A DNA stretch of 64,000 nucleotides, taken from Candidatus Staskawiczbacteria bacterium RIFCSPHIGHO2_02_FULL_43_16. Its GTDB lineage: Bacteria > Patescibacteriota > Minisyncoccia > Minisyncoccales > Staskawiczbacteraceae. Shown one piece after another: positions 266 to 63,300 of the stretch. The notes beneath the pieces are model-generated. The model searched no databases and was not told where the DNA came from. It saw only the letters and a program-made list of their open reading frames with translations. Location of the stretch: NCBI GenBank assembly GCA_001821935.1, contig MHOU01000003.1, positions 11,873-75,872 of the forward strand. The letters run 5' to 3'. Position 1 is the first letter of the stretch. Each line of letters starts with the position of its first letter. A program made the translations under genes and the position numbers.

Positions 266-1843
266 ATGATAAAGAAGAAAACTGCTTCGGCAGTCAAGCC
301 CAAAAAGACAAAGGCTCAAGTAATTCCGGAAACGCCGAAAAAACCAATTGAACCCGTCATCAAACGCCCGCCGGTGGTGGTGGTTTTGGGGCACGTGGAT
401 CATGGAAAATCTTCCCTGCTTGAAGCCATCAGAGATTTTAAAATTACCGCCAAAGAGTCCGGCGGAATCACCCAGCATATTGGAGCTTATGAAGTGGAGC
501 AACACGGCAAGCATATCACCTTTATTGATACTCCCGGCCACGAGGCCTTTTCCGCCATGCGTACGCGCGGCGCCAGTGTGGCTGACATTGCGCTTTTAGT
601 GGTTGATGCCGCCCAATCTGTGCAGCCCCAAACCAAAGAGGCCATCAGTGCCATAAAAAATGCTGGTATTCCCATGATTGCGGTGCTAAATAAAATTGAC
701 TTACCCAGCGCCAACCCCCGTAAAATAAAAGAAGAACTTTCGCGCGCCGATGTGTTTGTGGAATCATTGGGCGGCACCGTGCCCTGCGTTGAAGTTTCTG
801 CCAAAGAAAAAACGGGTATAGACGAATTGTTGGAAATTATTTTACTGGTGGCCGATTTGCAGGATTTGACGGCCGATATAAAAAGCCCGGCCGAGGCCCT
901 GGTGATAGAATCGTACATGGACAGCTTAAAAGGTCCCGTGGCGACGGTAATTGTGCAAAAGGGCATTCTGCTTGCCAAAGATATTGTCGCCACCCAGACG
1001 GCCATGGCCAAGATAAAACTGTTGCAAGATTTCCAGGGTAAAACCGTGGAAAAGGTCATGCCCGGATCGCCCACCATTATATTGGGGTTTGAAAAGGTGC
1101 CGGGAGTTGGTGAAGTGTTAAAAAGTTACCCCAGCATGGAAGCGGCCGGCGCGGCTATCAAAACGCATGGCGATAAAAAAGAAATTAATTATGGCGGGGC
1201 GGCAGAGGGTGATGGCTCAAGGAAAACCGCCAATATTATTTTAAAAGGCGATGTCTTCGGGTCACTGGAAGCGATTGATGGCATGTTAAAAACTTTGCCA
1301 AGTGACCAGGTAACCCTGCGCGTCATTAAAGCCGAAGTGGGGGATATCAACGAAAGTGATGCCAAGCTGGCCGAAACCACCGGCGCCCATATCATTGGCT
1401 TTCGGGTGAAAATCAACCCGGGCGTGCTGGCCCTGATGCGCAATGACACCCAAAAAAGGGTGCGCATCAAAACCTTTGATATTATTTATGAACTAATCCA
1501 AGAGGTGCGCAATGGCATGGAAAAATCATTGGACGCCGAAAATGTACGCAAAGAAGTGGGGAAATTGAAAACCATTTTGGTATTCTGGGCTGAAAAAAAC
1601 CGCCAAATTGTGGGCGGAAAAATTACGGAAGGTGAATTGAAAAAAGGCTTGAAGCTGGACGTGGTGCGCGCCGATGTAAAAGTGGGCGCAGGCCGGATTG
1701 TTAATTTACAGCGCGACAAAAAAGATATTGACTTGCTTAAAAAAGGGGACGAGGCCGGGATTTTATTTGAAGGCAACATCAAAATTGAACAGGGGGATAT
1801 TCTGGTGGCGTACGTTGAGGAACGGCAAAAAGGAATACTCTAA
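266..1843 (+). CDS. infB: Translation initiation factor IF-2 (short form lacking the long N-terminal region)
   Basis: G-domain motifs VVVLGHVDHGKSSLLEAIR, DTPGHEAF, NKID. Domain order and length match IF-2. rbfA follows, as in the classical infB-rbfA arrangement. Confidence 0.9.
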   Translation: MIKKKTASAVKPKKTKAQVIPETPKKPIEPVIKRPPVVVVLGHVDHGKSSLLEAIRDFKITAKESGGITQHIGAYEVEQHGKHITFIDTPGHEAFSAMRTRGASVADIALLVVDAAQSVQPQTKEAISAIKNAGIPMIAVLNKIDLPSANPRKIKEELSRADVFVESLGGTVPCVEVSAKEKTGIDELLEIILLVADLQDLTADIKSPAEALVIESYMDSLKGPVATVIVQKGILLAKDIVATQTAMAKIKLLQDFQGKTVEKVMPGSPTIILGFEKVPGVGEVLKSYPSMEAAGAAIKTHGDKKEINYGGAAEGDGSRKTANIILKGDVFGSLEAIDGMLKTLPSDQVTLRVIKAEVGDINESDAKLAETTGAHIIGFRVKINPGVLALMRNDTQKRVRIKTFDIIYELIQEVRNGMEKSLDAENVRKEVGKLKTILVFWAEKNRQIVGGKITEGELKKGLKLDVVRADVKVGAGRIVNLQRDKKDIDLLKKGDEAGILFEGNIKIEQGDILVAYVEERQKGIL

Positions 1844-1887
1844 TTTGAAATTTACAATTTAAAATTTGAAATCAATTTGAAATATTT
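1842..1887. repeat. 45-nt AATTTGA-heptamer element; near-identical inverted copy at 63245..63290
   Basis: aatttgaaatttacaatttAaaatttgaaatcaatttgaaatatt matches the reverse complement of 63245-63290 with one substitution. Both copies lie immediately 3' of a gene (infB here; the pilB-like gene there), in the same orientation relative to that gene. Confidence 0.7.
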
Positions 1888-1899
1888 GAATTTTCAAAT

Positions 1900-1928
1900 G
1901 AGAAAAACCCAGATATCACTACCTGGGT
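1900..1928 (-). terminator. Rho-independent terminator hairpin for the minus-strand small ORF
   Basis: Plus strand has aaaaACCCAGatatcactaCCTGGGT. On the minus strand the stem CCCAG/CTGGG is followed by a T-run (TTTTTCTCATTT). Confidence 0.5.
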
Positions 1929-12662: not shown

Positions 12663-12798
12663 GTCGCAGTGGATTTGGGAGTACAGAAAAGGCACCTCCC
12701 CTTGCCAATAACACCCTTTCGGATATTATCTCCTATCCTCGCGAATAGGAACCACTGCGACGTGTGGCAGGTAGAAATGCCATCTCTATGTCGCAGTG
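12663..12798. promoter_or_regulatory. Repeated 10-mer GTCGCAGTGG (two direct copies and one inverted copy) upstream of the hydrolase gene
   Basis: GTCGCAGTGG at 12663-12672 and 12789-12798; CCACTGCGAC at 12755-12764. The 12755/12789 pair forms a 10-bp stem with a ~24-nt loop. Possible operator or leader structure. Confidence 0.3.
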
Positions 12799-13059
12799 GT
12801 CTTTGCCATGCTCCGTAAAAATTTACAGAGTTTAGGCAATTCAATTATTAAATTGTTATCTTAATACTAACTCAAAATCATTAAAAAATAAAGAGGTTTG
12901 TATCATTAAAAAGCCCCACGGGATTGGGGACTTTTCACGATATTACTCCCGGATAGTAAGACTAGATAGTGCATTGATGCTATTTCTGATATTATGGATT
13001 TGAGGCAATAGTTCGGAAAGCCAACCTTCTTCGGCACTATTTTGTAGTAAAAAGGTCGG

Positions 13060-22512: not shown

Positions 22513-23223
22513 TTATTTTGTAATTTTAAACGTGGAAAGTATTCTAGTATTTAAATCTTCTAATTCAAAAAAGTCAGAGTAATCTTTTCTTTTTAATTTC
22601 TCAATGTCTATCTCTTTATTTCCTAATATTGATAATACTATTGATCCATTACCATACTTTATAATCGTTGCGATAGTAGGAGTAAGTGAATAATAGGAAT
22701 AAACATTTTCTTCTTTTATTATATCTGTTTCTTTATAATCTTTTGCTATATATTTGGAATCTACCCTTTCGAAAGACAATGCTTCTACATTCTTTGTATT
22801 CTGATTTAAAACTCTTTGAAAATATACATATCCACCCTTTACTGCAAATGGATCGTTCATTTCACCAGTCACAGCAACATTAAATGGGCTGGGCTCATTG
22901 CACATCTCGCATATATTTAATCTCAAAGAGAACAACCTAATACTATCGTTATCAATATTCTTCTCAAAAAAGACATATGGCGAATCATTATCTTCGATTG
23001 TAAAATATTCTGGATATTTTATTTCAAATTTATAGCCCCCAAAAAATTTATTACTTTCACTTCTATACGTTTTCCAATTGGACATTTCATTTTGAAATTT
23101 TGCATTGTCATTTCGATTTTTGATATTTGCATTTTGCATTATCAAAAAACCCCCGCCAAACAATACTATTGCCGCGACCAGAATAATTAAAATTCCCTTG
23201 GACGTTAAAATTCTTTCTTTCAT
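22513..23223 (-). CDS. Hypothetical membrane-anchored protein
   Basis: N-terminal TM (ILIILVAAIVLFGGGFLIM) then a ~200-aa Asn/Tyr-rich domain. No family recognised. Confidence 0.5.
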   Translation of the reverse strand: MKERILTSKGILIILVAAIVLFGGGFLIMQNANIKNRNDNAKFQNEMSNWKTYRSESNKFFGGYKFEIKYPEYFTIEDNDSPYVFFEKNIDNDSIRLFSLRLNICEMCNEPSPFNVAVTGEMNDPFAVKGGYVYFQRVLNQNTKNVEALSFERVDSKYIAKDYKETDIIKEENVYSYYSLTPTIATIIKYGNGSIVLSILGNKEIDIEKLKRKDYSDFFELEDLNTRILSTFKITK

Positions 23224-26186: not shown

Positions 26187-26290
26187 AAAGAAACTCTAAA
26201 TTCTAAACACTAAACTCTAAACGTCTTAAGGCTTAGAATTTTGGATTTGTTTAGGATTTAGGGTTTCGGATTTAGGATTTTAAAAAAAGA
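26187..26290. repeat. Inverted arrays of telomere-like heptamers (CYCTAAA x4 then TTTAGGN x4)
   Basis: aaactctaaattctaaacactaaactctaaacg … tttggatttgtttaggatttagggtttcggatttaggatttt. An imperfect long palindrome built from heptad repeats, between yraN and nusA. Confidence 0.6.
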
Positions 26291-26312
26291 TGTCCGCTTT
26301 CAGACGGACATG
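26283..26312 (-). terminator. Rho-independent terminator downstream of yraN (minus strand)
   Basis: Plus strand aaaaaaagATGTCCGctttcagaCGGACAT. On the minus strand the hairpin is followed by a T-run. Confidence 0.55.
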
Positions 26313-32086: not shown

Positions 32087-32094
32087 TTAATCGG

Positions 32095-32165
32095 CGATCC
32101 TAATTTACGAATAGCATCCGAATGCTCCGAATACATTATTCGGATAATTCGGATGAAGATTCGGA
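32095..32165. repeat. Inverted arrays of heptamer repeats (TCCGAAT x3 then ATTCGGA x3)
   Basis: tttacgaatagcatccgaatgctccgaatacattattcggataattcggatgaagattcggatcatt, 3' of the NYN gene. Confidence 0.6.
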
Positions 32166-32188
32166 TCATTAGCCTCGCTTCAAAATAA

Positions 32189-34306
32189 ATGCAAAAGGAT
32201 GTATTTGAGTTAGAAATTGGGGGCAGGCTGATGAAAATCAAGATCACCGACTGGGCTTCGCAGGCCTCGGGGTCTTGTTTGATTAGTTATGGAGATACCG
32301 AACTGATCGCCACGGCAACCGTGAGCAATAAAGACGTTTCGGGACAAGATTTTTTCCCGCTAAGCGTGGACTACGAAGAAAAGTTTTACGCCGCCGGAAA
32401 AATTTATGGCAGCCGTTTTTTAAAACGCGAAAGCCGGCCAACCGATGATGCCATTTTAACTTCACGAATGATAGACCGAGCCGTGCGGCCACTTTTCCCT
32501 AAAGATTTCAAAAAAGAAGTTCAGGTTATTACCACCTGCCTTTCGTGGGACGGCGAAAACGATCCTGATCTTTTTGGCATGATTGGTGCTTCGTTTGCTC
32601 TGGCAAGCTCGCCTATTCCGTGGAACGGCCCACTGGCCGCGGTGCGTGTGGGCAAAGTAGGTGGAAATTTTATCATCAACCCAACGTACGCTCAGCGCGC
32701 CGAAGGCTCTATGGACCTAACCCTGGCCGCATTGGAACGCGATGGCAAGGTGCTCATCAACATGGTTGAAATGGGCGCCAAAGAAGTGATGGAAGAAGAT
32801 GTGGTGGCGGCCATGGAATTTGCCGGAAAAACTCTGCACCAGATTATTGAATTCCAAAAAGACATTGTCAAAAAAATCGGTAAAGAAAAAGTGGTCTTTG
32901 AAGCGGCGGTTCATTTGGATGTGCAAAAAGATATTGAAGATTTGCTGGGCAATCGGTTGGAGCAGGCCATTACGGGGGCACCCAAAGGAGAAAAAAATAT
33001 GGACGGCGTGGACGCGCTTAAAAAAGAGTGCGTGGACATGGTCAAAGAAAAATACCCGGACCAAGGCAAAGAAAAACAGGTATTATATTTTTTTGAAAAG
33101 GAAACAGAAAAAATACTTATCCACAATATTTTAGAAAAAAACCAGCGGCCCGATGGCAGAACTCCGGAAGAAATCCGTCCCCTGTGGTGCGAAGTGGCCG
33201 TGTTGCCGCGCACCCACGGCAGTGGAGTCTTCCACCGTGGACTGACTAAAATTTTGTCTATTTTAACCCTGGGCGGCCCGGGAGACCAGCAAATTTTAGA
33301 AGGCATGGAAATTGTGGGCAAAAAACGCTTCATGCACCACTATAATTTCCCGCCATTCTCCACCGGTGAAACCGGCTTTATGCGCGGTCCAAAACGGCGT
33401 GAAATCGGCCACGGCCACTTGGCGGAAAAAGCCTTGCTGCCATTAATCCCCGATCCGAAAGATTTCCCCTATACTATCAGAATTGTATCCGAAGCTTTGA
33501 GCAGTAACGGATCAACTTCCATGGCTTCCGTGTGCGCCGCTTCCATTGCTTTGATGGACGCGGGTGTGCCCATCAAAGAACCGGTAGCCGGCATTTCCAT
33601 CGGACTGGCCAAAAACGAAGAGACGGGAAAATATAAAGTTTTGACCGACATCCAGGGCCCGGAGGACCATTTTGGCGATATGGATTTTAAAGTGGCTGGC
33701 ACCAAAAACGGTATTACCGCCATTCAGATGGATGTTAAAATTGACGGCATCAATATGGACATTGTCAAAGAGGCTTTACAAAAAGCAAAAGATGCAAGAT
33801 TTAAAATTCTTGATATAATAAAGCAGGGCATTGCCGAGCCGCGCAAAAACCTTTCGGTGTACGCGCCCAAGATGCTTTCCCTGCAAATTAATCCGGCCAA
33901 GATTGGCGAAGTAGTGGGCCCTAAGGGAAGTGTAATCAATAAACTGATTGAGGAATTTGGCGTGACCATTGATATTGAAGACTCCGGTCTGGTGTTCATC
34001 ACCGGCGACAAGCAAGAAGGTGTTGATGGCGCGGCAGACAAAATCCGCAGCATCGCCCGCGAAATTGTGATTGGCGAAGTCTTCCAGGGAACGGTGCGCA
34101 AGATTATGGAATTTGGCGCCTTTGTTGATATTTTACCGGGACAATCGGGCTTGGTGCATATCTCAAAATTTGTGCCGGGCAAAATTAATAGCGTCAAAGA
34201 TGTGGTAAAAGAGGGCGATATCATCCCGGTAAAAGTGGTTGAAATTGACGCCATGGGCCGCCTGAACTTATCAGCCATTGACGCGGGGTTTAAACCTAAG
34301 AAATAG
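32189..34306 (+). CDS. pnp: Polynucleotide phosphorylase
   Basis: 705 aa. Two RNase PH domains, then KH and S1 domains. rpsO-pnp synteny. Confidence 0.9.
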   Translation: MQKDVFELEIGGRLMKIKITDWASQASGSCLISYGDTELIATATVSNKDVSGQDFFPLSVDYEEKFYAAGKIYGSRFLKRESRPTDDAILTSRMIDRAVRPLFPKDFKKEVQVITTCLSWDGENDPDLFGMIGASFALASSPIPWNGPLAAVRVGKVGGNFIINPTYAQRAEGSMDLTLAALERDGKVLINMVEMGAKEVMEEDVVAAMEFAGKTLHQIIEFQKDIVKKIGKEKVVFEAAVHLDVQKDIEDLLGNRLEQAITGAPKGEKNMDGVDALKKECVDMVKEKYPDQGKEKQVLYFFEKETEKILIHNILEKNQRPDGRTPEEIRPLWCEVAVLPRTHGSGVFHRGLTKILSILTLGGPGDQQILEGMEIVGKKRFMHHYNFPPFSTGETGFMRGPKRREIGHGHLAEKALLPLIPDPKDFPYTIRIVSEALSSNGSTSMASVCAASIALMDAGVPIKEPVAGISIGLAKNEETGKYKVLTDIQGPEDHFGDMDFKVAGTKNGITAIQMDVKIDGINMDIVKEALQKAKDARFKILDIIKQGIAEPRKNLSVYAPKMLSLQINPAKIGEVVGPKGSVINKLIEEFGVTIDIEDSGLVFITGDKQEGVDGAADKIRSIAREIVIGEVFQGTVRKIMEFGAFVDILPGQSGLVHISKFVPGKINSVKDVVKEGDIIPVKVVEIDAMGRLNLSAIDAGFKPKK

Positions 34307-34380
34307 GTGTTAGGTAATAGGTGTTAGGTGTTAGCCGAACGCGGCGCACTAATACCCAACACCAAGCACCCAACACCCAT
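34307..34380. repeat. Inverted arrays of heptamer repeats (TAGGTGT x4 then ACACC-type x4)
   Basis: taggtgttaggtaataggtgttaggtgttagcc … taatacccaacaccaagcacccaacaccc, immediately 3' of pnp. Confidence 0.6.
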
Positions 34381-38119: not shown

Positions 38120-38989
38120 TTGTCAAATCTGCTATACTCAACCCAAATGAATCTTCTTCCCCCATCACAAATCAAAGAATTATTGGCAAGCCATGGCGCC
38201 GTGCCCTCAAAACGGCTGGGGCAGAATTTTTTAATAGACAAAAATGCGCTGGCCAAGGTTGTGGAAGCGGCAAATTTACAACCAACTGACGTTATTTTAG
38301 AAATTGGCCCCGGTATCGGCACCCTAACCCAAGCCCTGGCTCAAAAAGTGAGAAAGGTGATTGCCATAGAGAAAGATGCCGGCATGGTGGATATATTGGG
38401 GAAAACCCTGAAAGACTTTAAGAATATTGAAATTGTCCAAGGCGATGCCTTAAAACTAGACCCTAGCCCCTATACCCTAGCCCCTTACAAGGTTATCGCC
38501 AACATTCCCTATTATATTACATCTCCATTGATTAGAAAATTTTTGGAAACACCAAGGCAACCGGAACACATGGTGCTCATGCTGCAAAAAGAAGTGGCTC
38601 AACGCATCGTGGCTCGCCCGCCAGACATGAGTATTTTAGCAGTTTCAGTGCAATTTTATGCGGAGGCTAAAATAGTTTCTTACGTTTCAAAAGGCTGTTT
38701 TTGGCCGGTGCCGAATGTGGATTCTGCCATCATTGCCATAAGATCGCGGAATGACGCAAAACCAAGCGGAAAAATTAACACTGATTTATTCTTTAGAATT
38801 GTAAGGGCCGGCTTTTCCCAACCAAGAAAGCAACTAGGTGGGAATTTGGTAAAAGAATTAAAGGGGAATAAAAAGGGGATAACCGAATGGCTTTTAGCCA
38901 ATAATATTCAACCCACCCAGCGGGCAGAGACCTTGAGCCTCAAAGACTGGCAAAACCTAACCAAAAATTCACCCTTAGGTGAAAATTGA
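38120..38989 (+). CDS. rsmA: 16S rRNA (adenine1518/1519-N6)-dimethyltransferase
   Basis: LGQNFLIDKNALAKVV… and SAM-binding EIGPGIGTLTQAL. Length as for KsgA. Confidence 0.85.
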   Translation: MSNLLYSTQMNLLPPSQIKELLASHGAVPSKRLGQNFLIDKNALAKVVEAANLQPTDVILEIGPGIGTLTQALAQKVRKVIAIEKDAGMVDILGKTLKDFKNIEIVQGDALKLDPSPYTLAPYKVIANIPYYITSPLIRKFLETPRQPEHMVLMLQKEVAQRIVARPPDMSILAVSVQFYAEAKIVSYVSKGCFWPVPNVDSAIIAIRSRNDAKPSGKINTDLFFRIVRAGFSQPRKQLGGNLVKELKGNKKGITEWLLANNIQPTQRAETLSLKDWQNLTKNSPLGEN

Positions 38990-39929: not shown

Positions 39930-39961
39930 GAAGGCAGTACAAAAAGGGGCTTTGTCGCCCT

Positions 39962-40138
39962 GAGACGAGAATTACGAAACCCCTCGGCGGTATTTTCCCA
40001 AAATTTAGAGATAGAAGTTTGATAGAATTTTTAGGCTTAGCCAAAGGCTCCGCCTAAAAATTATAGCGAACTTATAGCCTAAATTTTGGGAAAAGACCCC
40101 GAAACTCTTTTAAAATGGGGTTTCGTAATTCTCGTCTC
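39962..40138 (+). other. Structured ~180-nt leader with nested inverted repeats (22-bp outer arms); candidate riboregulator or MITE-like insertion
   Basis: Outer arms GAGACGAGAATTACGAAACCCC (39962-39983) and GGGGTTTCGTAATTCTCGTCTC (40117-40138). Inner pairs CCCAAAATTT/AAATTTTGGG and TTTTTAGGC/GCCTAAAAA. Confidence 0.4.
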
Positions 40139-40184
40139 CCGAAATCACAGTTCTTTCACCTCCTCATTCGAAAGGGGAATTTCC

Positions 40185-45131: not shown

Positions 45132-45312
45132 TTAAATGTTCTGCCCCAAGCAGAGTTTAATGGGAAAAGATAGTTTTCAAAGGACGACCCAGAACATCTG
45201 GGTTAATACTTAACCATATCATACTCATACGCCCTTGTCAATAGTGAATAATCTGTGCGCTTGCCAAGTGTTTTAATATGCTATAATTATCTATTAATTA
45301 GGAAATAATAAC

Positions 45313-45352
45313 GTAGCCGCCTAGACCCTAACCCCTAGACCCTACACCCTAA
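45313..45352. repeat. CTAGACCCTAACCCCTAGACCCTAYACCCTAA-family intergenic element (copy 1)
   Basis: cgcctagaccctaacccctagaccctacaccctaagc. Related copies at 48858-48900 (inverted), 49266-49306, and 52025-52062 (inverted, adjoining (TTTAGGG)6). Confidence 0.65.
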
Positions 45353-45355
45353 GCA

Positions 45356-45781
45356 ATGCCTCAATATCCCATTCCACAATTTATAGAAGAAGAGGGCAAA
45401 ATCATTTCCTTCCTCACCTTCCGGCAGTTTTGGTGGCTGGTGGGTGGCGGGGCGGTTATTGTTTTACTGTATTATATTTTGCCGTTTTATTTTTTCATTT
45501 TGACGGCACTTTTGGTGGCGGCCCTGGTGGGCACCATCGCCTTTGTGAAAATTAACAACATGTCACTGATAAAAATATTTTTGAACTTTTTAGGGTTTAG
45601 CCTGGGCGCCAAAACCTACACCTGGGAACGCAAAGAAACGCCGCGGAATAACGCAGAATCTTACGCGGAAAAACGCGGAATAAAAAACATCCCAGAGACT
45701 CTTGCGCGACCGCCCTTAAACTCAACTTTACGACCCAGCAGATTACAACAGATACAGAAAATAGTAGAAACAAAGCGATAA
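45356..45781 (+). CDS. PrgI/VirB3-like small membrane protein
   Basis: MPQYPIPQFIEEEGKIISFLTFRQFWWLVGGGAVIVLLYYIL… matches the PrgI-family N-terminal pattern (IPxxxxxxxKIxgxfTxRQfxxL). Two TM helices. A VirB4-like ATPase lies downstream. Confidence 0.5.
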   Translation: MPQYPIPQFIEEEGKIISFLTFRQFWWLVGGGAVIVLLYYILPFYFFILTALLVAALVGTIAFVKINNMSLIKIFLNFLGFSLGAKTYTWERKETPRNNAESYAEKRGIKNIPETLARPPLNSTLRPSRLQQIQKIVETKR

Positions 45782-45847
45782 TTTGATTATCGCCGCGAAA
45801 CGAAGCGAAATCTTACGCGGAAAGACGCGGAATAAAACGAATACAAT

Positions 45848-46246
45848 ATGTTATTATATGAAAAAGAGTCATATAAAATTAGGAAGGCAGTATTTAATGT
45901 TTACAAAGAATTGGGATGCGGCCACAAAGAAACCGTTTATCAAAAAGCGTTTTACATAGCGCTACTAAAAGAAGAATTAAAAATAGAAAAAGAAAAACGC
46001 CTGCCAGTAATATTTGATGGCGCCAATGTCGGCACATATATTCCAGATTTCCTTATTGAAGAAGCCATTATTGTTGAACTAAAATCCAAATCATTTATTA
46101 CCAAAGAAGACACATTGCAATTCTGGCAATATCTTAAAAGCACAAACTATAAGTTAGGTTTTTTAATAAATTTCGGCATACCCGGCAAAGCACAAATCAT
46201 TCGGCGCGTGTATGATACAGCAAGAAATAATTCACTAAACTATTAA
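45848..46246 (+). CDS. GxxExxY-family (PD-(D/E)xK-like) protein; cassette flanked by inverted CGCGGAAT repeats
   Basis: …LPVIFDGANVGTYIPDFLIEEAIIVELKSKSFITKEDTLQFWQYLKSTNYKLGFLINFG… matches the GxxExxY family. Flank 45815-45845 is tcttacgcggaaagacgcggaataaaa (a direct copy also lies at 45656-45690 inside the upstream CDS). Flank 46250-46300 is ttccgcgtgattccgcgttaatttccgcgcgattccgcg (inverted). Confidence 0.7.
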   Translation: MLLYEKESYKIRKAVFNVYKELGCGHKETVYQKAFYIALLKEELKIEKEKRLPVIFDGANVGTYIPDFLIEEAIIVELKSKSFITKEDTLQFWQYLKSTNYKLGFLINFGIPGKAQIIRRVYDTARNNSLNY

Positions 46247-46303
46247 AGGCTTTCCGCGTGATTCCGCGTTAATTTCCGCGCGATTCCGCGAAAATCCATC
46301 ATC

Positions 46304-46966
46304 ATGGATTCCGCTACACAGGATTTTTTAGAAATCAAAGACATCCGCGAGGGGGTTTTGGTGTTGAAAAATAACGGCTTGCGGGGAATTTTGATGGTTT
46401 CTTCCTTGAATTTCGCCTTAAAATCTTCCGAAGAACAGTCTTCCATTATTTACGCCTATCAGAGTTTTTTAAATTCCCTGGATTTTTCCTGCCAAATTGT
46501 CATCCAATCACGCAATGTCAACATCACCCCCTATTTGGACACGGTTAAAAACTTGGCAGAAAAACAAACCAATGAATTGCTGAAAGTGCAAACTTCTTCA
46601 TACGCGGATTTTATCAAAGAACTGGTACAGGGTGATAACATCATGACCAAAAGTTTTTACGTGGTGGTCCCCTACACCTTGACCGAGGCGTTAGGGGCGG
46701 GGGCGGCCCTTAATAAATCTGGCTTATTTGATATTTTTAAAAAAAATAAAAACAAAAACCAACAGCTGGGCGATGAAGATTTTGAAAAATGCAAAAACCA
46801 GCTGTGGCAAAGGATGGAATTCTTGGCTATGGGACTAAAACGCTGCGGGCTGGATGTCATGCCCCTGACCACCCCGGAACTGATTGAACTGTTTTGGGCC
46901 ATGCACCACCCCGACCAAGCAGAAGTGGGATATTACCCGGAAATACTGCCTGAATTATTGAAATAA
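46304..46966 (+). CDS. Hypothetical protein resembling the N-terminal region of VirB4-type ATPases (no NTPase motifs)
   Basis: LEIKDIREGVLVLKNNGLRGILMVSSLNFALKSSEEQSSIIYAYQSFLNSL… parallels the N-terminus of the next gene (IINIRDIIAPPYIGIGQDSIKLGEK…FFIFSYPRYLNTGWLSPAINL…). Confidence 0.45.
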   Translation: MDSATQDFLEIKDIREGVLVLKNNGLRGILMVSSLNFALKSSEEQSSIIYAYQSFLNSLDFSCQIVIQSRNVNITPYLDTVKNLAEKQTNELLKVQTSSYADFIKELVQGDNIMTKSFYVVVPYTLTEALGAGAALNKSGLFDIFKKNKNKNQQLGDEDFEKCKNQLWQRMEFLAMGLKRCGLDVMPLTTPELIELFWAMHHPDQAEVGYYPEILPELLK

Positions 46967-46968
46967 AT

Positions 46969-47077
46969 TTTTAATTTCCAATTTTTAAATAATTTTTTAA
47001 TGTTAAAATTTATAAAATACCACGCGCTTAAAAATTAGCAAATTAAAATATTATTTAAAAATTGGAAATTAAAAATT
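46969..47077. repeat. AT-rich palindromic element, core TAATTTCCAATTTTTAAATAAT with its inverted copy ~55 nt away; second locus at 60433..60500
   Basis: tttttaatttccaatttttaaataat … attatttaaaaattggaaattaaaaatt. The same 22-nt core and inverted partner occur at 60433-60500. Confidence 0.65.
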
Positions 47078-47084
47078 AATAGCT

Positions 47085-48872
47085 ATGGCATTTTTTAAGA
47101 AAAAAATTGAAGCTGAAGAAAAGATTTTTGAGCAGGAGACCATCAACATCCGCGACATCATTGCCCCGCCCTACATTGGTATTGGACAGGATTCCATAAA
47201 ACTGGGCGAAAAGATTGCCAAGTCTTTTTTCATCTTTTCGTATCCGCGCTACTTAAACACGGGCTGGCTTTCACCTGCCATCAATTTAAATGTGCCCATG
47301 GACATTTCCTTTTTCATCCACCCAGTTTCCAGCCAACTTATCTTAAAAAAATTACGTTCAAAAATTACCCAGGTGTCTTCAGAATTAATAGAGCGGCAGG
47401 AAAAGGGGTTGATCCGCGATCCCGCTCTTGAAACCGGCTACCAAGACATTGAAAACCTACGGGATAAAATCATCACCGCCCAGGAAAAAATGTTCCGCTT
47501 CGGGTTGTATATTACGGTTTATGAAGATACTCCGGAAAAGTTAAAAGAAACCGAAAGCACCTTCCGGTCTATTTTTGAATCGCGGCTGATTTACATCAAG
47601 CCAGCTATCTTTAAACAAAAAGAGGGCTTTATATCCACCAGCCCTTACGGCATGGATTTGCTGGACGTAAACGTGCCCATGGACACCGAACCGCTTTCCA
47701 CCACCTTCCCATTCGTTTCCTTTGACCTAAGCAGCAATGAAGGCATTTTATACGGCATCAACCGCCACAATAATTCCTTAGTGTTATTTGACCGTTTCAC
47801 GTTAGAGAATGCAAATATGGTTGTCTTCGCTAAATCAGGATCCGGTAAGAGCTACGCCATAAAATTGGAAATTTTGCGCTATTTGATGTGGGGCGTAGAT
47901 GTGATTGTCATTGACCCGGAAAACGAATATGAATTTTTGGCAGACGGGGTGGGGGGTGACTTCTTTAAAATTTCCCTTACTTCGGGCAACCATGTCAACC
48001 CCTTTGACCTACCGGTGCCCGGCCCGGACGACAGCCCCGAAGATATTTTGCGCTCAAACATCATTAACCTGGTGGGGCTGCTGCGCATCATGCTGGGCGG
48101 CTTAACCGCCGAAGAAGACAGTATTTTAGACCAAGCCATCACAGAAACTTACGCCGTACGTGACATTACCCCGCAGAGCGACCCGGCCAAATGGCAGGAG
48201 AACATTCCCATCATGTCTGATTTTGCCGAAGTGTTGGAAAACATGACCGGGGCCGAAAGCCTGGCCCGACGCCTTAAAAAATTCACCACCGGAACCTTTG
48301 GCGGATTCTTCAACCAAAGGTCAAACCTTAAAATTGATAAGAATTTTATTGTCTTTGGCATTCGTGACATGGAAGAATCGCTCAAAACCATCGCCCTGTA
48401 TATCATTATGCGCTATGTTTGGAACATTGTGCGCACTAATTTGAAAAAGCGAATTTTGGTGGTGGACGAGGCTTGGTGGCTAATGCAATCTGAAGATGGC
48501 GCTTCATTTTTGTTTGGTCTGGTCAAGCGCGGCCGCAAATATTGGCTGGGGGTTACCACCATCACCCAAGACATTGAAGACTTCATGCGCTCAAGCTACG
48601 GCAAAGCCATTATTACTAATTCTTCACTGCAACTATTACTTAAACAATCTCCGGCGGCCATTGAAATACTGCAAAAAACCTTTGACCTGACCGAACAGGA
48701 AAAAATGCTTTTGACCGAGGCTTCGGTAGGCGAAGGGCTCTTTTTTGCCGGCAAAAAACATGTCTTTATGAGTGTTAAAGCCAGCTACACCGAAGACCAG
48801 ATTATTACCACCAACCCCGGTGAAGTGGAAAAAATCAAAGAAGCGCGAAGACAATTAGGGTCTAGGGGATAG
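47085..48872 (+). CDS. VirB4/TrbE/PrgJ-family type IV secretion ATPase
   Basis: VirB4-type N-terminus. Walker A VVFAKSGSGKSYAIK. Walker B RILVVDEAWWLM. C-terminal …GKKHVFMSV…. 595 aa. Confidence 0.75.
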   Translation: MAFFKKKIEAEEKIFEQETINIRDIIAPPYIGIGQDSIKLGEKIAKSFFIFSYPRYLNTGWLSPAINLNVPMDISFFIHPVSSQLILKKLRSKITQVSSELIERQEKGLIRDPALETGYQDIENLRDKIITAQEKMFRFGLYITVYEDTPEKLKETESTFRSIFESRLIYIKPAIFKQKEGFISTSPYGMDLLDVNVPMDTEPLSTTFPFVSFDLSSNEGILYGINRHNNSLVLFDRFTLENANMVVFAKSGSGKSYAIKLEILRYLMWGVDVIVIDPENEYEFLADGVGGDFFKISLTSGNHVNPFDLPVPGPDDSPEDILRSNIINLVGLLRIMLGGLTAEEDSILDQAITETYAVRDITPQSDPAKWQENIPIMSDFAEVLENMTGAESLARRLKKFTTGTFGGFFNQRSNLKIDKNFIVFGIRDMEESLKTIALYIIMRYVWNIVRTNLKKRILVVDEAWWLMQSEDGASFLFGLVKRGRKYWLGVTTITQDIEDFMRSSYGKAIITNSSLQLLLKQSPAAIEILQKTFDLTEQEKMLLTEASVGEGLFFAGKKHVFMSVKASYTEDQIITTNPGEVEKIKEARRQLGSRG

Positions 48873-48900
48873 GGTTTAGGGTCTAGTAAAACCAAAAACG
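48858..48900. repeat. CTAGACCCTAA-family element (inverted copy), left flank of the four-helix-bundle cassette
   Basis: aattagggtctaggggatagggtttagggtctagtaaaac. Confidence 0.6.
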
Positions 48901-48910
48901 CAACATCCTG

Positions 48911-49267
48911 ATGTTAAAATCACATAAAGAACTTATTGTTTGGCAAAAATCTATTAAATTAGTAAAGGAAATTTATATTCTTACTAGTAACTTTCCTCAA
49001 AATGAGATTTATGGACTATCTTCTCAAATGAGACGCGCGGCGGTATCTATACCATCAAACATTGCCGAAGGATATTCAAGAAAGAACATAAAAGAGTATT
49101 TACAGTTTTTAAGGATCAGCTTTGGATCTTCCACAGAACTGGAAACACAAATAATTATTGCAAAAGATTTATACAAAAGCGTGGATTATAAGCCCGCCGA
49201 ATTATTACTAGAAGAAGTATTGAAAATGTTAAATACTATGATAGAAAAATTAGAAAATAACGCGTAG
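48911..49267 (+). CDS. Four-helix-bundle protein (the family formerly called '23S rRNA intervening-sequence protein')
   Basis: …WQKSIKLVKEIYILTSNFPQNEIYGLSSQMRRAAVSIPSNIAEGYSRKNIKEYLQFLRISFGSSTELETQIIIAKDL… matches the family consensus. Confidence 0.7.
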   Translation: MLKSHKELIVWQKSIKLVKEIYILTSNFPQNEIYGLSSQMRRAAVSIPSNIAEGYSRKNIKEYLQFLRISFGSSTELETQIIIAKDLYKSVDYKPAELLLEEVLKMLNTMIEKLENNA

Positions 49268-49306
49268 CCGTCTAGACCCTAACCCCTAGACCCTATACCC
49301 TAAAGC
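49266..49306. repeat. CTAGACCCTAA-family element, right flank of the four-helix-bundle cassette
   Basis: tagccgtctagaccctaacccctagaccctataccctaaagc. Confidence 0.6.
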
Positions 49307-49310
49307 AGAG

Positions 49311-51450: not shown

Positions 51451-51487
51451 AAAAGCGCTCCGATGCCCATCGGAGCGCTTTTTTATT
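51451..51487. terminator. Bidirectional rho-independent terminator
   Basis: aAAAGCGCTCCGATgcccATCGGAGCGCTTTTttatt. Confidence 0.75.
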
Positions 51488-51499
51488 ACTGATTTGGTT

Positions 51500-51976
51500 T
51501 CACTTGGGGGTAATCACCACCCGCCGATCAAGGCCTTCCCCCTGGCTTTCCGTGGCCACGTCATCACGCCCGGCAAGTTCGGCGTGAATGATCCGGCGTT
51601 CATAAGAACTCATAGGAGGCAGGGTTTTGCTGATTTTGGTGAGTGAAACCTGGTCGGCCAACTCGTTGGCTGTTTTTTTCAAGTAAGCCAATTTTTGGGC
51701 CTGGTAGTTATTAATATCAAGCAGAATGTGGCAGGCCCGGCCAAGCTTTTTGGTGGCCAGCATGCGCAAGGTGCGCTGAAGGTCTAACAGGGTTTTGCCG
51801 TTTTCGCCTATTAAAAACTGGGGTTCTGAAAGCGTAACACGCACCTGAGCCGAGTCAACAGTTTCATCGGCCGCCACACCCTCCACCACATCCAGAGTAA
51901 AACCATCCACGGTCATATTGGTCAACAGTTCTTGCGTTAAACCTTTTATTATTTCCAATTCCTCTTTGGTAATCAT
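51500..51976 (-). CDS. jag: Jag/SpoIIIJ-associated RNA-binding protein (KH plus R3H)
   Basis: 158 aa. C-terminal R3H-like …IHAELAGRDDVATESQGEGLDRRVVITPK. Position downstream of yidC in the rpmH-rnpA-yidC-jag cluster. Confidence 0.75.
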   Translation of the reverse strand: MITKEELEIIKGLTQELLTNMTVDGFTLDVVEGVAADETVDSAQVRVTLSEPQFLIGENGKTLLDLQRTLRMLATKKLGRACHILLDINNYQAQKLAYLKKTANELADQVSLTKISKTLPPMSSYERRIIHAELAGRDDVATESQGEGLDRRVVITPK

Positions 51977-52062
51977 AGTTAGGGTTTAGGGTTTAGGGTT
52001 TAGGGTTTAGGGTTTAGGGTTTTACTATACCCTAGACGCTAGCCCCTAGACCCTATCTTTTT
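51977..52062. repeat. Telomere-like tandem heptamer (TTTAGGG) x6 followed by an inverted CTAGACCCTA-type element
   Basis: gttagggtttagggtttagggtttagggtttagggtttagggttttactataccctagacgctagcccctagaccctatc, between yidC and jag. Confidence 0.75.
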
Positions 52063-56177: not shown

Positions 56178-56227
56178 TAATAGTCCAGCAAAAAAGCCCC
56201 GCGGGGCTTTTTTGCTGGACTGCGATC

Positions 56228-58483: not shown

Positions 58484-58520
58484 GAGTTTATAGTTCCATA
58501 ATTTTCAGTAAAAATCAACC

Positions 58521-58550
58521 AAAAAAGCCGCCCGCGGGCGGCTTTTTTGG
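58521..58550. terminator. Bidirectional rho-independent terminator
   Basis: aaaaaAGCCGCCCGcgGGCGGCTtttttgg. Confidence 0.7.
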
Positions 58551-58560
58551 GTTATGGGTT

Positions 58561-58737
58561 ATTCCTCTTCAATAGGGTTGTCATCCAAATCATCATCCCC
58601 TTCTTTGTCATCGTCTTTTTCTTCTTCGTCTAATTCTTCCTTCTCTTCTTCATCGTCGTCGCCAAGGATGACGGCGTCGTCATCAAAGTCATCGGCTTGG
58701 TTCATGGCGTTTTTTACAAAATCCTCCTCCATCTTTT
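58561..58737 (-). CDS. Small highly acidic protein (58 aa; below the ORF-track cutoff)
   Basis: Minus-strand ATG at 58737. Translates MEEDFVKNAMNQADDFDDDAVILGDDDEEEKEELDEEEKDDDKEGDDDLDDNPIEEE*. A terminator follows. The listed plus-strand ORF over the same bases is low-complexity Ser-rich. Confidence 0.25.
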
Positions 58738-58744
58738 GAAAACT

Positions 58745-58830
58745 CGAAACTCGAATTTCGAAATTCGAAACATATTTTGAATTTGTTTCGTATTTCGGAT
58801 TTCGTATTTCGGATTTAATTTTTATTAACT
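58745..58830. repeat. Inverted arrays of heptamer repeats (NCTCGAA x4 then TTTCGNA x4)
   Basis: actcgaaactcgaatttcgaaattcgaaacatattttgaatttgtttcgtatttcggatttcgtatttcggattt. Confidence 0.6.
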
Positions 58831-58888
58831 TCTACCATTATATTTTTTCAGGCACTATTGTCAAGGGCTCGTTCGTCCACAGGGGCTT

Positions 58889-59161
58889 GGGAGTGCGGGA
58901 TCCGAACTAAAATCATCTTGAGAAGCGCAAAAATGAGATCAGTTTTTCGGATTTTTGAGAAGGCGATGTTGCAAGACATCGCCGCCGATAAAATTTGAAG
59001 AAATGAGCCATTTTTGCGCTTCCCTCCAGGCGTCAAGATTTTGCCTCATCTGCGCGCGTTTTGCTCGTCAGCGATGTTAAAAACATCGCTTCCTCACAAG
59101 AACCCGCGCATCTAAAGCAAAATCTTGACGCTCAATCGATTTAGTTCGGATCCCGCACTCC
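58889..59161. mobile_element. MITE-like ~273-bp element with perfect 22-bp terminal inverted repeats and internal hairpins; right end overlaps the last codons of ruvC
   Basis: Terminal inverted repeats GGAGTGCGGGATCCGAACTAAA (58889-58912) and TTTAGTTCGGATCCCGCACTCC (59140-59161). Internal GGCGATGTtgcaagACATCGCC and AGCGATGTTaaaAACATCGCT hairpins. No ORF of its own. Confidence 0.45.
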
Positions 59162-59665
59162 TAACACTGCACAGAGCGCGATTCCCAGGGCATCGGCCGC
59201 GTCATCTTTTTTACGGCCCTTGGTTTTATGGTCAAAACCATCCATGTCCAGCAGCTGCTTGGTCATTTCTTGCACCTGTTTTTTTTCCGCCCGGCCATAG
59301 CCCACCACAGTCATCTTTACTTGCAACGGGGTAAATTCCATAACCGGGATCTTCTTTTGGGCTGCCGCCAACAAAATAACCCCCTTGGCTTGGCTCACCG
59401 GCATGGCGGTTTTTAAGTTCTTAAAGAAGAAAAGGCTTTCAATAGATATTAAATCCGGTTTATGTTTATCAATCAACTTTCCGATTTCTTTATGAATAAT
59501 ATTCAACCTGTCTCCGGGCGAATCAAATTTTGTAGTAGTAATGCATCCAAAATCAATCACTTTGGGTTTTTCGTTTCTATCCTGGCGCAGGTGTTTGGAG
59601 ACGTTGGTTTTGATAATCGCGTATCCCATCAAGGCCACGCCCGGATCCACGCCTAAAATGATCAT
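59141..59665 (-). CDS. ruvC: Crossover junction endodeoxyribonuclease RuvC
   Basis: MIILGVDPGVALMGYAII… (catalytic Asp). 174 aa. yebC-ruvC synteny. Confidence 0.9.
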   Translation of the reverse strand: MIILGVDPGVALMGYAIIKTNVSKHLRQDRNEKPKVIDFGCITTTKFDSPGDRLNIIHKEIGKLIDKHKPDLISIESLFFFKNLKTAMPVSQAKGVILLAAAQKKIPVMEFTPLQVKMTVVGYGRAEKKQVQEMTKQLLDMDGFDHKTKGRKKDDAADALGIALCAVLGVRDPN

Positions 59666-60396: not shown

Positions 60397-60432
60397 AATG
60401 TGAATTTTTAATTTTGTAATTTCCAATTTTTA

Positions 60433-60500
60433 AATAATATTTAAAACATGCCGTAAATTTAGGAATTATTTAAAAATTAAAAATTGGAAATTTAAAATTA
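60433..60500. repeat. Second locus of the TAATTTCCAATTTTTAAATAAT palindromic element
   Basis: ttttgtaatttccaatttttaaataat … aattatttaaaaattaaaaattggaaatttaaaatt. Confidence 0.65.
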
Positions 60501-62822: not shown

Positions 62823-63233
62823 TCACGATTTTGATCTTTTTTGTATTGCGCCAAATTGGTTAACAGATTCTTGGAGATTTGCCCTTGCTCGATCGCTAAG
62901 ATCAAAGTCATTTCGTCCACTCTCATCAAAGTCAGCCTTGGCAATTTTATTATCTTCAACTGTAAAGTTTATATCTATAATTATTCCAAAATCAGTTTCC
63001 CTAAGCTCTGAGTATTTTACCCCATTACTCATTTTTGCAATTTCTCCCGTTTGGGCATTAACGACTGCCACCCTAGAGACTCCGCGGTGACGGTAGGAAA
63101 TATTACCTTGCTTTTCTTCAAGCATCTTAATGTTCCGATCAACAATATCTTCATCAATCTTTATTTCAAGAATTCCCTCTTGTTTTTCTTTCCAATTATC
63201 TGGATTTTCTGATCCCAAAACTTTTTCTCCCAT
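62823..63233 (-). CDS. Hypothetical protein
   Basis: 136-aa ORF. No family recognised. Confidence 0.45.
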   Translation of the reverse strand: MGEKVLGSENPDNWKEKQEGILEIKIDEDIVDRNIKMLEEKQGNISYRHRGVSRVAVVNAQTGEIAKMSNGVKYSELRETDFGIIIDINFTVEDNKIAKADFDESGRNDFDLSDRARANLQESVNQFGAIQKRSKS

Positions 63234-63244
63234 ATTTTTAAATT

Positions 63245-63290
63245 TAATATTTCAAATTGATTTCAAATTTCAAATTGTAAATTTCAAATT
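63245..63290. repeat. Inverted copy of the 45-nt AATTTGA-heptamer element seen at 1842..1887
   Basis: Reverse complement reads aatttgaaatttacaatttGaaatttgaaatcaatttgaaatatt, differing by one base from 1842-1887. It lies 3' of the pilB-like gene. Confidence 0.7.
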
Positions 63291-63300
63291 CCGCGCGCGG

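Follow-up and report, generated by a model that had tools for sequence, protein, structure and literature searches.

What are the tandem heptamers that follow infB in the genome of Candidatus Staskawiczbacteria bacterium RIFCSPHIGHO2_02_FULL_43_16? In a 64,000-nucleotide (nt) stretch of this genome (contig MHOU01000003.1, positions 11,873 to 75,872; hereafter the window), an array of AATTTGA units starts at the infB stop codon, and arrays of other heptamers recur between genes further along. A preliminary description counted at least seven such loci, read each as copies of a heptamer followed by copies of its reverse complement, and offered bidirectional terminators, protein-binding arrays or products of replication slippage as explanations. 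Tandem heptamer arrays have been noted in bacteria since 1990, and to our knowledge no account of their origin has been accepted. The answer proposed here, to which a probability of roughly 0.66 is given, is that they belong to small selfish cassettes resembling intervening sequences (IVSs), either as the terminal inverted repeats of the cassettes or as parts of derivatives that lack the open reading frame (ORF) or one arm. The observations behind it are the anatomy of the cassettes, three states of occupancy of the same gene spacers, arms that track their cargo, near-identical arms at unlinked sites, and an association that holds across phyla.

The window carries infB, rbfA, nusA, pnp, ksgA, yidC, ruvC, a PBP1 gene and a prgI-traC-virB4 operon of type IV secretion system (T4SS) type. 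It contains no rRNA, and its elements sit between protein-coding genes, not in helix 25 or 45 of 23S rRNA. When its exact proteins were looked up, all matches were to contigs from one and the same population of the Rifle aquifer, with 98.3-100% identity where they aligned, and they were uninformative for comparison. Two wider samples were used: 80 loci of relatives, retrieved from metagenomes with the VirB4-like protein as query (66-86% identity, operon conserved; labelled here with L-numbers), and 80 loci from many phyla, found by scanning one genome per species with an alignment of IVP. IVP is the four-helix-bundle "23S rRNA intervening-sequence protein" (S23p, Pfam PF05635).

The arrays themselves are real. 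A lag autocorrelation scan, with a cut-off of at least 16 self-matches in 21 at lag 7 and the shuffled window as control, found 15 period-7 arrays against 0.13 in shuffles; the other periods from 4 to 15 gave 0-8 each. Tandem Repeats Finder (TRF) listed 20 arrays of period 7, most often 30-32 nt long (about 4.4 units), and this modal length recurs in the 80 relatives and the 80 IVP loci. At least seven unit families occur within 64 kb, unlike a system with one (or three) fixed unit sequences per genome. Repeat finding speaks against ordinary low-complexity spacers: period 7 stands far above shuffles and the length is stereotyped at about 31 nt.

Slippage nevertheless has a place in the history of some arrays. 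Perfect expansions such as (TTAGGGT)6.3 at 51979-52022, for which the slippage proposed in the preliminary description is plausible, and (GTGTTAG)15 in L127 (5119-5237) look like recent slippage expansions. Some perfect cassette-family arrays spell the plant-type telomere repeat (TTTAGGG)n (window 51979-52022, L164 4975-5018, L165 1795-1838), and these runs have the same recent appearance. These expansions, together with the dispersed distribution and terminal inverted repeats of the elements, could suggest slippage-made spacers or MITEs (miniature inverted-repeat transposable elements) of a conventional DDE transposon. That explanation is extremely improbable, as only period 7 is enriched, lengths peak at 31 nt instead of decaying geometrically, and the symmetric layout is tied to cargo genes and comes without target-site duplication or transposase. 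Slippage leaves the symmetry, the preferred length and the link to cargo genes unexplained.

Two of the inverted pairs enclose small genes, which the preliminary description had overlooked; these arrays are the ends of gene cassettes. The first cassette lies downstream of virB4 at 48855-49306 (+) and consists of an arm (48855-48886), an ORF (48911-49267) and a second arm (49272-49306). The ORF encodes a 118-amino-acid (aa) IVP (PF05635, 23S_rRNA_IVP, E 7e-36). Its TAGGGTC / CTAGACC arms form inverted repeat I5, which spans 32 nt at 88% complementarity with 385 nt between the arms, and when the whole cassette is folded they pair in both the minimum free energy (MFE) and the centroid structure, closing off the gene (z -4.0). 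The upstream arm begins inside virB4. VirB4 of the window ends in ...EARRQLGSRG*, while its relatives carry unrelated short tails after EAR+KL, so the arm supplies the last four virB4 codons and the stop.

The second cassette, at 45794-46290 (+), carries a gene for GxxExxY, a PD-(D/E)XK nuclease (PDDEXK_3, PF13366). Its ORF (45848-46246; 132 aa, E 3.7e-33) is flanked by CGCGGAA arms at 45794-45832 and 46252-46290 (inverted repeat I6, 72% complementary), which pair across 419 nt in the MFE and centroid folds of the whole cassette (z -1.0). The inverted layout described for this pair holds, but its period is about 10 and not 7, and the arms stand 419 nt apart with a gene between them. An extra copy of the arm occurs at 45642-45680 (+), in the 3′ part of a prgI-like ORF (I4, 79% complementary to 46252-46290). 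This ORF, 45356-45781, reads through the arm and apparently takes its C-terminal tail from the array, a parallel to the virB4 tail at 48861-48872. IVP/S23p and GxxExxY are among the commonest unexplained small proteins of the candidate phyla radiation (CPR), cyanobacteria and Bacteroidetes.

A remnant of an IVP cassette is found directly upstream of the prgI start. At 45296-45354 (+), approximately the last seven codons of an IVP gene are followed by a solo downstream CTAGACC arm (45309-45354), with 54/60 matches to the 3′ end of the intact cassette of the window (49248-49308). The same junction holds an IVP cassette in L097, L119, L140 and L159.

Other inverted pairs in the window enclose no ORF and form hairpins with RNA fold z-scores of -3.5 to -7.2. 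At 26190-26281 (-), AAACTCT ×4.6 and TTTAGGA ×4.4 face each other (26190-26224 / 26249-26281) in the nusA leader (z -5.4 and -7.2), downstream of the terminator of a UPF0102 gene (26290-26311). An element of the same family, AAACTCG / TTTCGKA at 58737-58819 (-; z -4.2 and -3.6), lies in a 5′ leader, with a consensus promoter (58864 to 58837) ahead of it and a 57-aa acidic ORF after it; in L102, an element at a non-orthologous site matches its arms at ~90% identity. At 34303-34379 (+), TAGGTGT ×4.4 and ACCCAAC ×3.7 (34303-34338 / 34351-34379; z -4.8 and -6.1) extend from the pnp stop codon, which is the first TAG of the array, to just before the next ATG; the infB stop codon is likewise the first triplet of its array. 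The hairpin at 32093-32179 (+) fills the spacer between an NYN gene and pnp with TCCGAAT / ATTCGGA units. In L103, an element homologous to its left arm follows virB4, again a non-orthologous site. A further hairpin, 51973-52056 (-; z -5.5 and -5.1), joins the perfect (TTAGGGT)6.3 to CTAGACC ×4.4 between the yidC stop and the start of an R3H gene; its unit family is that of the IVP cassette of the window. Two AT-rich hairpins share arms: 46963-47080 (+; inverted repeat I1, z -6.5), whose 53-nt arms are 87% complementary and which fills the traC-virB4 spacer, and 60406-60497 (-; I3, z -3.5 and -4.4), which lies between the stop of a comEA/LTD-like gene and the yebC start. At gathering score, Rfam has no match at any array of the window, and permissive thresholds added only sub-threshold matches to a generic hairpin (miRNA precursor) at 58736-58820.

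The single architecture with locus-specific units that the preliminary description had proposed is right for most loci, with corrections. Five of its seven loci are inverted, the pairs at 26190-26281 and 34303-34379 as described, and the four compact hairpins among them fold with z-scores of -3.6 to -7.2; the other two, 1842-1895 and 63245-63297, are direct arrays. The locus given as 58745-58830 is inverted (58737-58772 / 58782-58819), but its supposed hexamers are really heptamers, AAACTCG / TTTCGGA. At 32093-32179 the hairpin is strong (z -6.0), but its TCCGAAT units are spaced irregularly, at 9-12 nt, and do not make up a tandem heptamer array. Missed altogether were the hairpins at 46963-47080, 60406-60497 and 51973-52056, the arms of the IVP cassette, the solo arms at 45309-45354 and 45642-45680, and the array-like stretches inside ORFs.

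The focal locus is itself a solo arm, of the upstream type. It spans 1842-1907 (+), starts at the infB stop codon, and comprises AATTTGA ×4.4 plus AATCAATTTGAAATATT, followed by a vestigial ATG and about four codons. It is not a palindrome, as first described, but a direct array with a single inverted unit (z -2.9). The second AATTTGA arm, at 63222-63297 (-), lies between the stop of a T2SSE gene and the start of a 136-aa ORF (62823-63233, -), which has no family assignment. Here too the array (63236-63297) is direct; it has no inverted partner and forms no hairpin (z -0.5). The two loci are copies of each other in opposite orientation: 1842-1907 matches the reverse complement of 63222-63290 at 61/69 positions, and the likeness extends into the ATG and first codons. 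From this resemblance, the 136-aa ORF may be a further type of cargo, with the focal locus keeping the same arm and a vestige of its start. The focal array also has homologs in L106, L109 and L120, where they form the upstream arms of cassettes with an IVP of a third subfamily (see below).

The position of the arrays had suggested that they act as unconventional, possibly bidirectional, transcription terminators after genes. Stable hairpins do lie in spacers right after stop codons, and some lie between operons. However, a terminator scan found no T-run at any heptamer hairpin, and classical GC-rich stems with T-runs stand at other sites instead (56182-56221, 58519-58550, 51451-51482 and 26290-26311). 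In many genomes the hairpins and cassettes lie within the conserved prgI-traC-virB4 operon, where termination would be harmful. The statement that nearly all loci lie just 3′ of a gene is uninformative, as the elements occupy whole spacers from stop codon to next start, and at least two (26190-26281 and 58737-58819) belong to 5′ leaders and have a terminator or promoter upstream of them. The terminator proposal is not supported, and we consider it very unlikely.

The T4SS-like operon of the relatives offers a view of the same spacers in different states. Among 139 prgI-traC and traC-virB4 junctions, 88 measure at most 46 nt, 19 measure 64-145 nt, 4 measure 216-301 nt and 28 measure 372-551 nt. 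The 64-145-nt class clusters at 100-111 nt and consists mostly of hairpins. The long junctions, wherever an ORF was called, hold one ORF of 86-147 aa, always on the (+) strand of the operon. A Pfam check of ten ORFs (nine cassette ORFs of relatives plus one ORF of the window) identified seven of the nine as IVP, with PDDEXK_3 and GIY-YIG represented once each, and all scored above cut-offs. Which junction is occupied varies by genome: it may be the one before prgI, the prgI-traC or traC-virB4 spacer, or the one after virB4. Inverted periodic arms bound those IVP and PDDEXK_3 cassettes that were examined, the upstream arm running from the upstream stop codon and the downstream one ending at the next ATG. 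In the only GIY-YIG cassette (L098), the inverted repeats are GC-rich and non-periodic, and an ACGAATT array stands at the downstream side. Period-7 arrays in the relatives have an inverted partner in 56/85 cases, and the distance to it is bimodal, either 5-170 nt or mostly 375-430 nt.

The GC-rich palindromic repeat that flanks the GIY-YIG cassette (L098 4036-4495; GTCATTGCGAGG...GAAGCAATC and GTCATTCCCGCGAAAGCGGGAATC types) also stands alone at the same junction elsewhere (L136 4378-4483, L149 4319-4426). Another variant is the 301-nt spacer element at 4199-4501 of L097. It has CTAATTA-type arms, as does the neighbouring IVP cassette, around a structured ORF-less interior (MFE -87.9), and it looks like a cassette with non-coding cargo.

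Arms follow cargo. IVPs 73-82% identical to that of the window come with TAGGGT/TAGCGT arms, a second IVP subfamily with GAATCTTG-type arms, and a third with AT-rich AATTTGA/AATTTCT arms; L097, L102 and L163 each hold two IVP subfamilies with different arms within one genome. GxxExxY genes have CRCGRAWT or TACTAAT cores spaced 8-11 nt apart. The ORF-less hairpins of L116 and L153 share arms with the IVP cassettes of L129 and L116. Taken together, the shared arms at non-orthologous sites, the 45296-45354 remnant and the cargo-tracking arms indicate that elements dispersed and then decayed into hairpins and solo arms.

The association between heptamers and IVP genes extends well beyond this operon. 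The 80 IVP loci come from CPR phyla, Gammaproteobacteria, Bacteroidota, Firmicutes, Acidobacteriota, Planctomycetota, Omnitrophota and others. When upstream flanks were compared with reverse-complemented downstream flanks, the median score was 28 against 16-17 in controls. A period-7 array is present in 55/157 IVP flanks of 120 nt, compared with 8/233 control segments; period 8 gave 14, period 9 gave 1, and periods 4-6 and 10-12 gave none. The unit varies between loci but agrees between the two arms of one locus. G exceeds C in the upstream arm at 48 loci and the reverse is true at 5, and the flanking ORFs are both co-oriented with the IVP gene at 59 loci and both opposed at 2. Median arm length is 27-28 nt (53-56 loci), and the spacer from arm to ATG is 15 nt. 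Among cultured organisms, IVP genes on annotated plasmids of Nostoc, Anabaena and Riemerella carry heptamer arms. For instance, the IVP gene of Anabaena 90 lies between cas6 and cas4 with GGTGACA arms. Another example is a GxxExxY gene of Bacteroides finegoldii, which stands between inverted CAGAGGA arrays. Upstream arms hold stops in all three frames in 41% of cases versus 9% in shuffles, which is a hint only, because much of this excess follows from periodicity and a T/A/G-rich composition; stops in all frames would allow an element to land at a gene end without fusion.

The stereotyped length of about five cores (31 nt), with a unit type that follows the cargo subfamily, invites the view that the arrays are protein-binding sites that regulate their neighbors or the element, with, for example, one heptamer per subunit of a pentameric IVP. 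IVP homologs are homopentameric (Xcc0516, cited in PMC4990558 and PMC3936711), and the CRCGRAWT core is common to the GxxExxY arms of CPR relatives (L103, L131, L134), Treponema and Fusobacteria. The match between five units and a pentamer is numerically attractive, and the pentamer may be a candidate partner of the arms. However, 31 nt fits the requirement for a ~30-bp duplex equally well, and many hairpins have no cognate cargo nearby in the sequence at hand. As the main explanation of the arrays, binding is decidedly unlikely.

Host-beneficial RNA is a further alternative. Repetitive extragenic palindromic (REP) and bacterial interspersed mosaic element (BIME) sequences and the RNase III sites of phage T7 act in this way. 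The hairpins here could similarly be intercistronic stem-loops that protect upstream transcripts from 3′ exonucleases or set differential expression, with the cargo genes as secondary insertions into the loop. Their intercistronic position, the 59 to 2 sense bias, a family-specific polarity relative to transcription and the abundance of ORF-less ~100-nt hairpins are in keeping with this. The elements are, however, sporadic among close relatives (88 of the 139 junctions are empty), their arms follow the cargo subfamily and not the host junction, they lack wobble bias, and the solo arms and truncated remnants resemble decay. A host-beneficial role is unlikely, though not negligible.

On the preferred reading of IVS-like selfish cassettes, a full cassette measures ~430-550 nt and consists of an arm of ~30 nt, a spacer of ~15 nt, one small gene and the complementary arm. 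The upstream arm is purine- or G/T-rich with roughly five heptamer cores, and the cargo is a four-helix-bundle IVP/S23p, a GxxExxY PD-(D/E)XK nuclease or a GIY-YIG nuclease. Such a cassette sits in sense orientation between two host genes, from a stop codon, often supplied by the arm, to the next start, and its cargo would therefore be transcribed by read-through. Loss of the interior would leave ~100-nt hairpins or solo arms, which would account for most of the loci first described. In the transcript the arms may pair into a ~30-bp duplex that closes off the cargo, insulating the cassette RNA or allowing it to be processed; by analogy with the IVSs of 23S rRNA, we infer processing of this duplex by RNase III. 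Spread may be driven by the nuclease cargos or by a DNA hairpin intermediate. Periodicity may have arisen as slippage extended the arrays to a preferred length, may serve recognition by a pentameric IVP, or both. A role of the DNA hairpin in mobility may be as likely as a role of the RNA.

Several observations weigh against this scheme. RNase III processing is only an analogy, and a cut in the stem could yield non-stop mRNAs where, as with virB4, pnp and yidC, the arm includes the final codons and stop of the preceding gene. Arm mismatches at 56 loci comprise 53 G:T and 57 A:C; this equality gives no evidence for a strand-specific RNA stem. Four hairpins of the window fold better when taken from the antisense strand. 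Arm polarity is family-specific, and the CTCGAAA family has its C/A-rich arm first. As to mobility, no recognizable transposase is encoded in or near any cassette, and a direct repeat of at least 3 nt that could represent a target-site duplication occurs at the boundaries of 1/53 loci, compared with 3.6% in permuted controls. It is conceivable, if less likely, that the occupied junctions are what repeated loss has left of an ancestral full set. In addition, the 136-aa ORF that follows the 63236-63297 arm has no partner arm, and one GxxExxY gene (Fusobacteria, L184) has direct, not inverted, flanks.

Some further features of the window are less directly related. Period-7 array-like DNA occurs at 23083-23140 (-), in the N-terminal part of ORF 22513-23223 (TRF and lag scan), and its membership in the heptamer system is uncertain. 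Within ksgA, four in-frame CTAGNCC units at 38456-38485 (+) encode the variable loop LDPSPYTLAP. The unit is that of the downstream arm of the IVP cassette, and one copy has TAT where TAG would be an in-frame stop. An in-frame insertion could not be shown, as the segment aligns to a variable loop without added length.

Three other structured elements were noted. A ~290-nt non-coding segment at 58880-59170 (-), between ruvC and a perfect TTGACA-16-TATAAT promoter, has an MFE of -153 kcal/mol (z -15.2), a 25-bp closing stem (58887-58911 / 59140-59164), an inner 31-nt stem and no Rfam match; the predicted fold makes it a candidate for a novel structured RNA or another palindromic element. At 39955-40145 lies a near-perfect ~190-nt hairpin (MFE -95.8, z -14.6) whose inverted repeats are nested, one of them a 22-nt pair with 100% complementarity; it is not heptamer-based and belongs to no Rfam family. 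The third, at 12707-12838 (-), matches LOOT RNA (RF03000, 58.3 bits, above the gathering score); a predicted 346-aa ORF, which may be miscalled, overlaps it with its 5′ end.

The link between repeats and cargo explains the evolution of the two alike, as selfish cassettes and what is left of them, and it accounts for the presence of IVP and GxxExxY genes inside cas, T4SS and other operons. It also provides a rule for annotation, by which cassette boundaries, solo arms and array-derived protein tails can be recognized. IVP genes inside cas operons have been noted (PMC3936711). A full-text literature search found no paper that ties IVP or GxxExxY genes to heptamer arrays, although subscription journals may differ.

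Heptamer repeats described elsewhere share much with these elements. Xanthomonas has 70-75 inverted pairs of GGGAATC repeats per genome and Nostoc has heptamer repeats as well (PMC4692102), and TAACTGA repeats occur in Beggiatoaceae, cyanobacteria and Bacteroidetes (PMC4679880). These repeats and the short tandemly repeated repetitive (STRR) sequences of cyanobacteria are likewise intergenic tandem heptamers of few units, often in inverted pairs and often abutting start codons, with a unit that differs between lineages; the parts of those papers that were searched report no cargo genes and propose G-quadruplex or translational roles. The elements of the window differ in that one genome holds many units, tied to cargo subfamilies, and in belonging to the CPR. 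A broader and tentative proposal, which we regard as possible but doubtful, is that bacterial heptamer arrays are largely the terminal repeats or debris of one widespread class of mobile IVS-like cassettes with IVP, GxxExxY or GIY-YIG genes, found in mRNA spacers and rRNA, in which the five-core arm is the binding site of the pentameric IVP toroid and IVP acts as the arm-binding or mobility factor. If true, this would cover the cyanobacterial STRRs, the Xanthomonas GGGAATC pairs and the TAACTGA repeats, and would give IVP its long-missing function.

Other mobile repeats offer partial parallels. Like REP/REPIN-RAYT systems, the elements are short palindromic intergenic repeats in which a gene, there a single-copy and presumably mobilizing one, is flanked by inverted repeats and outnumbered by gene-less copies; however, no Y1 (RAYT) transposase is among the cargos here, the arms are periodic and each genome has many families. 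Like MITEs, they are small, non-autonomous and dispersed with terminal inverted repeats, but they come without target-site duplications or a related transposase-encoding parent. The free-standing homing-endonuclease genes of phages (GIY-YIG, PD-(D/E)XK) are similarly sporadic sense-strand nuclease genes between conserved genes, with a junction that varies. They differ from the present cassettes, which have inverted periodic arms and whose commonest cargo, IVP, is not a nuclease.

The closest comparison is with the rRNA IVSs of Leptospira, Coxiella and Xanthomonas (PMC4990558). RNase III excises that of Coxiella, which is 428 nt long and combines a 28-bp terminal stem with an S23p ORF (PMC4990558). 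The cassettes described here share the PF05635 cargo, a similar size (372-551 nt compared with 428 nt), a terminal stem of ~28-30 bp that encloses the ORF, ORF-less short forms and a sporadic, selfish-looking distribution. In contrast to rRNA IVSs, they occupy the spacers and 5′ leaders of protein operons, have arms built of tandem heptamers, and also carry GxxExxY and GIY-YIG cargos; while rRNA IVSs are excised by RNase III, excision of the present elements would follow by analogy.

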